DNA of 64,000 nt. It comes from Escherichia coli. GTDB taxonomy: Bacteria; Pseudomonadota; Gammaproteobacteria; Enterobacterales; Enterobacteriaceae. Below are positions 36,908 to 49,668 of the stretch, in pieces. A program made the translations under genes and the position numbers. Below the pieces are notes generated by a model. That model did no database searches. It was given only the letters and a program-made list of their open reading frames with translations, and was not told the origin of the DNA. Location: NCBI RefSeq assembly GCF_024298765.1, contig NZ_CP101210.1. One strand, 5' to 3'. Position 1 is the stretch's first letter; each line of letters begins with the position of its first letter.

Positions 36908-37127
36908 AGCACCTTGCTGAAAGATAATTTCGTTACCGTACGTATTGTTCTCCGACGGTTTACATAATTACTATACTGAAGATGATTTTCCCTGGGTACA
37001 TGGCATAAAGTTTATGTTTCCAGGAATATTGCATGTCATAGTTTGTTTTTGATCGCGATTTTCCTTAGTTAGCGCAGAAAGAGTTATTTATCCGTAAGAT
37101 CTTGCATGACCTGAAAAGAATATTGCA

Positions 37128-44479: not shown

Positions 44480-44702
44480 TCCTGACTTAATGCCGCAATT
44501 TTGCCAAATCGACCTGGATTAACCTCCGTCCAGGTTCGATGACCTTCTTAATACTGCTTATCTATCCGCCTGATATTGTTCAAAAATAATACTAATCGCA
44601 GTTTGTGTTAAAACGGCGGGTTAGCTTTATGAGATTATTCTTATCGCCCCTTCAAGAGCTAAGCCACTGAGAGTGCCGGAGATAAGCGCCGGATGGGGTA
44701 GA

Positions 44703-44750
44703 AACCCTTAAGCCTGTGTCGCACAGACTTAAGGGTTTTCTTATTTCTGA
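44703..44750 (+). terminator. Strong Rho-independent terminator; possibly the 3' end of the RydB sRNA
   Basis: Long hairpin AACCCTTAAGcctgtgtcgcacagaCTTAAGGGTT followed by TTCTTATTTCT; the ydiH-sufA intergenic region is where RydB maps in E. coli, but I cannot recall the RydB sequence well enough to confirm. Confidence 0.4.
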
Positions 44751-44832
44751 ACGCTGCACTTTTTTACCTATCTCTTAAATAGTCATTTTCAATACAACTT
44801 TTTCTTTTTCATCACAGCCTTAATGCTCCTTA

Positions 44833-44848
44833 GATAATAATCATTATC
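44833..44848. promoter_or_regulatory. Fur-box-like palindrome in the suf promoter region (distal)
   Basis: GATAATAATCATTATC, a near-perfect match to the GATAATGATAATCATTATC Fur consensus. Confidence 0.5.
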
Positions 44849-44968
44849 TAACAATGAGATACCTAATTCTTAGCGTGCCTGTTAACCCACACATCAGGGT
44901 CTATGCTTATTAAAAGCAGGAAAAAAGCATGTTTTACGGTAAAGCCCCTGCGTTTGCTGGGTTGAACT

Positions 44969-44981
44969 GATAATCATTATC
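44969..44981. promoter_or_regulatory. Fur box in the suf promoter (proximal)
   Basis: GATAATCATTATC about 50 nt upstream of the sufA ATG; the suf operon is known to be Fur-repressed. Confidence 0.6.
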
Positions 44982-45027
44982 ACTAACATGCTGTTTTACG
45001 CTGAAAGCGATGAAGTGAGGTAAATCG

Positions 45028-45396
45028 ATGGACATGCATTCAGGAACCTTTAATCCACAGGATTTCGCCTGGCAGGGCTTAACGCTGACACCCGCAGCCG
45101 CTGTCCACATCCGCGAGCTGGTGGCAAAGCAGCCGGGTATGGTCGGCGTGCGCTTAGGCGTGAAGCAAACGGGCTGCGCGGGCTTTGGCTATGTGCTCGA
45201 CAGTGTTAGCGAGCCGGACAAAGACGATCTGCTGTTTGAACACGACGGCGCGAAGCTGTTTGTCCCGCTGCAAGCGATGCCGTTTATTGATGGCACGGAA
45301 GTCGATTTCGTTCGTGAAGGACTTAATCAGATATTCAAATTTCACAACCCTAAAGCCCAGAATGAATGTGGCTGTGGCGAAAGCTTTGGGGTATAG
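45028..45396 (+). CDS. sufA: Fe-S cluster A-type carrier SufA (122 aa)
   Basis: C-terminal CGCGESF motif; matches SufA. Confidence 0.95.
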
Positions 45397-45404
45397 GCGG
45401 TACT

Positions 45405-46190
45405 ATGTCTCGTAATACTGAAGCAACTGACGATGTCAAAACCTGGACCGGCGGCCCGCTGAATTATAAAGAAGGATTCTTCACCCAGTTAGCCACCGAT
45501 GAGCTGGCAAAGGGGATAAACGAAGAGGTGGTGCGCGCAATTTCGGCGAAGCGTAATGAGCCGGAGTGGATGCTGGAGTTTCGTCTCAACGCCTATCACG
45601 CATGGCTGGAGATGGAAGAACCGCACTGGTTGAAAGCGCACTACGACAAGCTGAATTATCAGGATTACAGCTACTACTCGGCACCATCGTGCGGTAATTG
45701 TGACGACAACTGCGCGTCTGAACCCGGCGCGGTGCAGCAAACTGGCGCGAACGCCTTTTTAAGTAAAGAGGTGGAGGCGGCGTTTGAGCAGTTGGGCGTT
45801 CCCGTGCGGGAAGGCAAAGAGGTGGCAGTGGATGCCATTTTCGACTCTGTTTCGGTTGCCACTACTTATCGCGAAAAACTGGCGGAGCAGGGAATTATTT
45901 TTTGTTCCTTTGGCGAGGCGATCCACGATCACCCGGAACTGGTGCGTAAATATCTCGGCACCGTGGTGCCGGAGAATGACAACTTCTTTGCCGCACTTAA
46001 TGCGGCGGTAGCCTCTGACGGTACGTTTATTTATGTGCCTAAAGGCGTGCGTTGCCCGATGGAACTTTCCACCTATTTTCGCATTAACGCGGAAAAAACC
46101 GGGCAGTTTGAGCGCACCATTCTGGTGGCCGACGAAGACAGCTATGTCAGCTACATTGAAGGCTGTTCCGCTCCGGTGCGTGACAGCTAT
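45405..46190 (+). pseudogene. sufB: sufB 5' fragment (codons 1 to about 262 of about 495)
   Basis: N-terminal SufB sequence only; the C-terminal part that forms the SufBC2D scaffold is missing. Confidence 0.8.
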
Positions 46191-46640
46191 CATAATGGCG
46201 AATACCTCATTCATGGCACCAGTGCGCCGGACAGCGTCGGTTTGCGCGTCAGTTCGGGCTGTATTCGCATGAATGCACCGGATATTAAAGCTTTATTCTC
46301 CAGCGTGCGGACGGGAACACCGGTGAAAGTGATCAACGAACCGGTGAAATATTCCGTGGAACCTAACGGGATGCGTTATGTTGAAGTACATCGACCACTA
46401 TCGGCAGAAGAACAGCAGAACGTTCAGACAATGCCGTACACGCTGCCAGCAGGCTTTACGCAATTTAAAGACAATAAGGCTGTAGATCAGAAGTTAGTCG
46501 ATAAAGCGTTGTATCGTCGGGCAGGGTATCCGGTTGCGGTGAGCAGTGGAGCAACTCCCGCAGCCAGCAATGCGCCTTCAGTAGAGTCAGCGCAGAATGG
46601 GGAACCAGAGCAAGGGAATGTGTTACGCGCGACGCAGTAG
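45405..46640 (+). CDS. In-frame chimeric ORF: SufB N-terminal ~262 aa fused to the C-terminal ~149 aa of an L,D-transpeptidase (LdtE/YnhG-like YkuD domain); deletion remnant
   Basis: Translation follows SufB ([26 protein letters not shown]...[13 protein letters not shown]) then switches to an L,D-transpeptidase catalytic motif ([36 protein letters not shown]) and runs to a stop 60 nt before the convergent lpp; no sufC/D/S/E ORFs exist between sufA and lpp. Confidence 0.85.
46191..46640 (+). pseudogene. ldtE: ldtE (ynhG) 3' fragment: YkuD catalytic domain without signal peptide or LysM domain
   Basis: L,D-transpeptidase motif HGT...SSGCIRM with a C-terminal tail; sits immediately before lpp, where ldtE lies in E. 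coli. Confidence 0.75.
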
Positions 46641-46655
46641 CGGTAAATAGCAGGC

Positions 46656-46686
46656 AAAAAAATGGCGCACAATGTGCGCCATTTTT
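46656..46686. terminator. Bidirectional Rho-independent terminator (lpp terminator; also ends the suf/ldtE transcript)
   Basis: AAAAAAA-TGGCGCAC-aa-TGTGCGCCA-TTTTT. Confidence 0.8.
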
Positions 46687-49428: not shown

Positions 49429-49668
49429 CCATTCAGGATGAGGCGGTAAGCTTCATCCTGATATTGTTAGTTCAGTTGCGGTCCAGTTAATCATTCTAAA
49501 TAACAACTGCTGAAATTATACGAATTTCGGTGTATATTTTAATTTATAGCGATAAAGTTATTTTTATTTTCTGCGATGAACTTCACAAATAATTGTCGGT
49601 TAAGTTAAATTTATTTCAAATGATAATAAATATCAGTTCACTTATAATTTCTTGCTTTGTGATTTTAA

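Follow-up and report, generated by a model that had tools for sequence, protein, structure and literature searches.

Retention of an unaltered suf control region upstream of a probably recent, strain-specific deletion in Escherichia coli

The 548-bp intergenic region between ydiH and sufA (44480 to 45027, plus strand) in the 64-kb stretch of Escherichia coli chromosome analyzed here, called the window below, is very likely the canonical E. coli control region of the suf promoter (PsufA), in which the core regulatory elements are unaltered, the more distal of two Fur-box-like palindromes is an arm of an IHF site, and the deletion that removed most of the operon downstream is recent. This control region is already known and is among the best characterized in E. 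coli, and the only mildly unusual features that we found are a clone-specific T at the transcription start and the unique deletion. Regulator binding to PsufA and transcription from it in the window strain are predicted from the DNA sequence. The control region is unchanged here, and its retention has little significance beyond annotation.

Results and Discussion

The ydiH-sufA region matches that of suf-intact strains

The genes in the window, an E. coli chromosomal segment, are in the order ydiK, ydiJ, menI, ydiH, sufA, a sufB/ldtE fusion, lpp, and pykF. The region from 44480 to 45027 spans exactly the interval from the ydiH stop codon to the sufA ATG and holds the suf control region plus the small RNA gene rydB. 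Of 5,426 complete E. coli genomes, 5,421 contain this 548-bp spacer, which we compared base by base with the corresponding region of suf-intact strains. It is 100% identical to that of strains 104 and 2009C-3133, both of which have a complete sufABCDSE operon and are suf-intact members of the window's own clone. Identity to K-12 over the same interval is 98.9%, with five substitutions and one 1-bp insertion. Three of these differences, at 44499, 44502, and 44575 (the inserted base, a T), are close to ydiH, and the remainder are a T for C at 44841, an A for C at 44921, and a T for A at 44996, so that the -35 and -10 elements, the Fur operator, and the IscR site contain none.

An earlier note on this DNA had held that the iron- and oxidative-stress-responsive promoter of suf is retained with its upstream region intact, and had proposed this base-by-base comparison as a check. 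The comparison found no disrupted -35, -10, or regulator site, and every element that we mapped is undisturbed, in agreement with that view. The rydB gene, the IscR site, the OxyR and IHF blocks, and the A-to-T change of the start base, all described below, are absent from the earlier note. Compared with K-12 PsufA, which is controlled by Fur, IscR, OxyR, and IHF, the window has the same locus and the same architecture, and the -35, Fur operator, IscR site, -10, and far-upstream blocks are identical. The difference lies downstream, where sufA alone of the six suf genes is intact in the window.

Core promoter, IscR site, and transcription start

The -35 hexamer of PsufA has been given as TTGAAC (PMC8561392), and this hexamer is found at 44962 to 44967 on the plus strand, with the same sequence as in K-12. 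We infer that the -10 hexamer is TAACAT at 44984 to 44989 (plus strand), which follows the -35 after a 16-bp spacer and precedes the transcription start by 7 bp. In an alignment of 81 species, each base of TAACAT is common to at least 90% of the sequences.

We placed the transcription start (+1) at 44996 (plus strand), since this is the sole position that fits the published anchors, namely, the ATA of the Fur-site mutation -26ATA-24 (to TAT), which maps to 44970 to 44972, and the C of the IscR-site mutation -50C>G, which maps to C 44946 (PMC12594620). With this start, the second published IscR-site mutation, a deletion of -56 to -51, corresponds to 44940 to 44945 (PMC12594620), and the IscR type 2 site is at 44941 to 44965 on the plus strand (-55 to -31), where it overlaps the -35 and is the same as in K-12. 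Thus, as in K-12, the TTGAAC -35 is set inside an IscR type 2 site that includes -50C.

The start base departs from the canonical promoter, being a T in the window and an A in K-12. An A is found in this column in 77 of 80 Enterobacteriaceae species, and only 71 of the 5,418 complete E. coli genomes compared contain an exact copy of the core 57-mer with T at +1; these apparently all belong to the suf-intact clone. This count is in line with the approximately 72 genomes that are at least 99% identical to the window over the surrounding 20 kb and that constitute its clone. Because sufB and sufD are present in 25 of 25 clone genomes among the matches listed, we consider the T at +1 unrelated to the deletion. 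This base change could shift or weaken initiation.

The proximal palindrome is the known Fur operator

We scanned the window with a 7-1-7 Fur motif, TGATAATNATTATCA, allowing at most 2 mismatches, and obtained 5 matches versus the 0.33 expected by chance from the shuffled 64-kb window. Two of the matches are inside the 548-bp spacer, so the match of this spacer to the Fur consensus exceeds chance. Outside the suf region, a good 7-1-7 match, TGATAATAAATATCA, with 1 mismatch, is found at 49621 to 49635, between fumD and ydhY. The earlier note had described two Fur-box-like palindromes in the spacer, GATAATAATCATTATC at 44833 to 44848 and GATAATCATTATC at 44969 to 44981, and both are exactly at these positions. 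The proximal one, a perfect motif match at a site conserved in all species compared, held up as a Fur box, while the distal one, which is polymorphic and has a left half unconserved outside Escherichia, is unsupported as a second Fur box.

The proximal 7-1-7 match (44968 to 44982) is perfect at 14 of 14 specified bases and includes the palindrome. A 19-bp Fur box, GATAATGATAATCATTATC, is matched at 16 of 19 positions at 44969 to 44987 on the minus strand, with 0.01 such matches expected per window. Together, these matches define a Fur operator at 44968 to 44987 that occupies the spacer between the -35 and the -10 and overlaps the core promoter. To follow this site across species, we used an ortholog set of 600-bp sufA upstream sequences, taking a single genome for each of 80 Enterobacteriaceae species. 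All 80 species have a proximal 7-1-7 match of at least 12/14, and its position relative to the sufA ATG is -60 to -63 in almost every species. In K-12, where the proximal site has the same sequence as in the window, changing -26ATA-24 to TAT removes Fur control (PMC12594620). By its sequence and position, we identify the proximal palindrome as the known Fur operator.

The distal palindrome is probably part of an IHF site

The distal palindrome, at -163 to -148, overlaps no promoter and is far from the PsufA core. Its 7-1-7 match (44835 to 44849) has 2 mismatches (12/14), and its match to the 19-bp Fur box is 14/19 by hand count, with adjoining overlapping repeats that are poor. In K-12 the site reads GATAATAACCATTATC, with a C where the window has a T at 44841. 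The 57-mer around the distal site of the window is found exactly in 1,979 of 5,414 E. coli genomes, most of the others being 1 to 2 bases off, and in the 80-species set the palindrome is confined to the window and two more Escherichia species. The two halves differ in conservation in the 81-sequence alignment, with the left half, GATAAT, being poorly conserved and not kept outside Escherichia and the right half, CATTAT, being conserved and extending in most genera to CATTATT(A/T)ATCAATGCATTG. This extended sequence of the orthologs contains a perfect IHF core, WATCAANNNNTTR, that aligns to 44849 to 44861.

Since the distal palindrome is polymorphic, is conserved in its right half alone, and is located beside the IHF core WATCAANNNNTTR in orthologs, we read it as the A/T arm of an IHF site. 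The probable IHF site is at 44842 to 44861, where the CATTAT arm is followed by the Escherichia version of the core, TAACAATGAGATA. It falls in a conserved block that coincides with what we take to be the IHF region of Lee et al. 2004, -156 to -127, corresponding to 44840 to 44869. According to reviews, IHF binds downstream of a distant OxyR site and upstream of the core promoter, and the putative site in the window is located in this interval. On these grounds the distal palindrome is unlikely to be a Fur operator, though Fur may bind there weakly.

An alternative reading of the distal palindrome is that it is a true second Fur operator, at least in strains with the T allele, at which Fe-Fur would also block IHF-dependent activation by OxyR at high iron. 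Its overlap with the IHF region would fit such a role, as would the 11-mer TAATCATTATC that it has in common with the proven operator and scores of 12/14 to the 7-1-7 motif and 14/19 to the Fur box when only 0.33 chance 7-1-7 matches are expected per 64 kb. We nevertheless regard a second operator as unlikely, because the site is polymorphic and reads GATAATAACCATTATC in K-12, the strain in which suf regulation was worked out, because GATAAT is unconserved outside Escherichia, because hand counting gave no good overlapping second 7-1-7 repeat, and because the literature treats mutation of the proximal site alone as abolishing Fur control (PMC12594620). We also considered a secondary promoter that uses the distal GATAAT as its -10 (44811 to 44838) and rejected it, as promoter-like matches numbered 2 versus 1.9 expected by chance and the half-site is unconserved.

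rydB, the OxyR block, and an additional conserved block

The upstream part of the spacer contains the rydB small RNA gene at 44646 to 44706 (plus strand), which matches Rfam RF00118 over the full model length with a covariance score of 81.6 bits (E value, 5.8e-19) against a gathering score of 50. RNA folding predicts a GC-rich long hairpin with a 12+5 bp stem, followed by a U-rich tail, at 44701 to 44749 (plus strand). We infer that this is a terminator-like element after rydB and ydiH, which would insulate PsufA from upstream transcription. A separate hairpin, ACCTGGA...TCCAGGT at 44511 to 44536, is found just 3' of the ydiH stop codon, does not vary among seven Escherichia sequences, and could be either a terminator or a structure at the 3' end of ydiH.

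Reviews place an OxyR site far upstream of PsufA, beyond -200. In the window, a far-upstream block at 44757 to 44799 (about -239 to -197) is probably this site. The OxyR consensus is highly degenerate, and the match to it at 44757 to 44793 is 13/20, which is among the top ~10 positions in the window; an equal or better match at 44551 to 44587 is probably due to chance. The block is strongly conserved (44766 to 44800) in 81 Enterobacteriaceae sequences and coincides with the region at -236 to -197 (44760 to 44799) that we take to be the OxyR site of Lee et al. 2004.

Another highly conserved block, at 44896 to 44929, contains the 14-mer GGGTCTATGCTTAT within an inverted repeat, ATGCTT-16 nt-AAGCAT (-100 to -68). 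Among the regions upstream of sufA in 81 Enterobacteriaceae sequences, at least 90% agree at every base of this 14-mer (-100 to -87). We sought a regulator for the 44896 to 44929 block, and none was assignable. Position 44921, in the spacer of the inverted repeat, is an A in the window that appears to be private and a C in K-12 and most species.

When published work on K-12 is applied to the window, the predicted layout from upstream to downstream is rydB and its hairpin, the OxyR block, the IHF site, the IscR site over the -35, the Fur operator, the -10, and the start at 44996. At plentiful iron, Fe-Fur in the -35/-10 spacer would block RNA polymerase. Apo-IscR bound at -55 to -31 would recruit polymerase, and oxidized OxyR would activate from far upstream via a bend induced by IHF. 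The distal palindrome would be the A/T arm of the IHF site that, by happenstance, resembles a pair of Fur half-sites in part of Escherichia.

An in-frame deletion joins sufB to ldtE

The first gene downstream of the control region, sufA (45028 to 45396, plus strand; 122 aa; Pfam Fe-S_biosyn, E value of 4.8e-19), is intact, and its position and 369-bp length are as annotated in strain 104, with matching sequence. The earlier note's statement that most of the suf operon is gone is accounted for by a 5,053-bp deletion with its junction at 46192|46193. The deletion is blunt, preserves the reading frame, shows neither microhomology nor a scar, and joins position 2 of sufB codon 263 to position 3 of ldtE codon ~187. 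It removed sufB from codon 263 on, sufC, sufD, sufS, sufE, and the first ~186 codons of ldtE. As a result, of the six genes of sufABCDSE, sufA alone is intact, sufB is cut at codon 263, and sufC, sufD, sufS, and sufE are absent.

The chimeric gene, sufB(1-262)::ldtE(~187-334), is at 45405 to 46640 (plus strand) and is in frame. Its 411-aa product keeps the Pfam domains SufBD_N and Ldt_C, positions 1 to 40 of the 232 in the SUFBD core, and positions 93 to 146 of the 146 (the last 54) in YkuD. Because only fragments of the two catalytic domains are left, the chimera has presumably lost both activities. The site in early sufB with which RyhB pairs is also still present. The next terminator-like hairpin, which is bidirectional and shared with lpp, is at 46665 to 46686 and is likely the end of the shortened transcription unit. 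From the position of this hairpin, PsufA now heads a sufA-chimera transcription unit, and the earlier proposal that the promoter serves only sufA and the chimera is thus consistent with the sequence.

The sufB remnant also carries a private G190E substitution (GGG to GAG at 45973), which is found in 0 of the 5,225 complete genomes that match the flanking 57-mer. This change is suggestive of relaxed constraint on the remnant. As proof of relaxed selection we rejected it, because it is a single event that, with 2 SNPs in 20 kb, would fall there ~8% of the time by chance.

The window strain is probably both SUF deficient and LdtE deficient. It shares the loss of the SUF machinery with laboratory K-12 mutants deleted for sufABCDSE (Outten et al. 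2004, as cited in PMC12594620). The laboratory allele lacks sufA too and carries a cassette or scar, whereas the window keeps sufA and the promoter and additionally has an inactivated ldtE. Laboratory sufABCDSE mutants are described in the literature as viable through Isc and sensitive to iron starvation and oxidative stress, and the window strain is expected, from this literature, to be sensitive to both conditions. Under iron starvation or oxidative stress, it would still induce SufA and a presumably useless fusion protein.

Other natural suf lesions

Loss of SUF is rare and sporadic in E. coli, since sufC is complete in 5,416 of 5,426 genomes and only ~10 are without a complete sufC. We retrieved other chimeras with a SufB N-terminal query, and the cases found in this way are therefore a biased sample. 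A SufB(1-173)::LdtE fusion is found in a K-12-like lineage (Logan ERR2932817; L084, 6001 to 7230), where 5,059 bp is deleted with imperfect microhomology at the junction. A SufB(1-247)::SufS fusion, produced by a blunt deletion of 3,582 bp, is found in two samples (ENA ERZ27275993 and Logan SRR10084762; L085 and L086, 6001 to 7125), and the promoter of this lineage is ~95% identical to that of the window. Among complete genomes, strain ET358 (L089, 7001 to 9915) has lost sufC'-sufD-'sufS beside an IS91 element, and strain LB19b (L090, 7001 to 8011) has a sufA'::'sufB fusion in which the promoter is kept and sufA is destroyed.

Like the deletion in the window, these natural partial suf deletions are sporadic, strain specific, and SUF inactivating, with the promoter left in place, and two of them yield in-frame SufB fusions, one of them to LdtE. 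Unlike it, they are in different lineages and have different breakpoints, and the junction of the window is in none of them. This small census suggests that SUF loss, when it occurs, arises by unrelated one-off deletions. We considered promoter decay in ERR2932817, where the -35 reads TTGTAC, and rejected it, as 578 complete genomes, and E. albertii as well, have exactly this allele, making it a common polymorphism. The protein search also listed SufB-SufC and more SufB-SufS fusion products (P0002, P0009, P0011, P0021, and P0022).

The deletion is probably recent, and selection is not needed to explain the intact promoter

Deletion aside, 6 SNPs and 3 homopolymer indels in 64 kb separate the window from 2009C-3133, its closest suf-intact relative, and these 9 small changes bear out the suggestion in the earlier note that the deletion is recent. 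A search for the junction in 5,426 complete E. coli genomes gave 0 matches, and neither the junction nor the chimera was found in JGI metagenome contigs. The chimera, searched as three protein versions, gave no exact-product match and has no close match in 5.8 billion protein clusters. At the observed divergence, ~0.08 substitutions are expected in 548 bp, and an unchanged promoter therefore shows recency only, not selection. In the model that we favor, the 5,053-bp strain-specific deletion would leave the promoter driving only sufA and the SufB'::'LdtE fusion, and the promoter would be intact because the deletion is very recent, with no need for selection.

It is quite improbable, in our judgment, that either sufA-sparing SUF loss is a recurrent selected genotype or the distal T-allele site is a Fur operator that competes with IHF, with iron gating OxyR activation. 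If either were true, the surviving control region would be more than a leftover and would serve a function of its own.

We also find it very doubtful that selection holds the promoter and sufA in the window strain, on the grounds that a stress-inducible lone SufA, an A-type Fe-S carrier compatible with Isc, would still be useful after the loss of SufBCDSE. A-type carriers are interchangeable, and three independent deletions (L084, L085/L086, and the window) begin in sufB, at codons 173, 247, and 263, and leave both sufA and the promoter in place; strain ET358 likewise retains the promoter, sufA, and sufB. However, the three chimeras came from a query with the SufB N terminus, so this sample is biased to sufA-sparing events, and ~8 complete genomes are without a sufA match, with an equal number being without a sufC match. 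In addition, LB19b retains the promoter yet truncates sufA, and divergence from suf-intact relatives, at ~0.08 changes per 548 bp, is too low to reveal constraint. For these last two reasons, the proposal in the earlier note that the promoter was retained for SufA expression is unsupported, and a very recent deletion remains our preferred explanation.

We also judge it very improbable that the deletion is not natural but arose when the assembly collapsed, when a laboratory construct was made, or when the sequence was edited, any of which would make the orphaned promoter biologically meaningless: the junction is blunt, without microhomology, and exactly in frame, and neither it nor the chimera is in any other genome, assembly, or metagenome searched, but the breakpoints have no repeat able to cause assembly collapse, there is no FRT or cassette scar, the natural suf deletion of L085/L086 is equally blunt and is seen in two independent samples, and the window has private SNPs, one of them in the sufB remnant.

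The three homopolymer indels relative to 2009C-3133, at 4600, 33921, and 57944, are length differences of one base each, which could be real or a sequencing error in either assembly. At 36911, 10 bp before the ydiN start codon, a private SNP changes the Shine-Dalgarno sequence from AAGGAG in 2009C-3133 to AAGGTG in the window.
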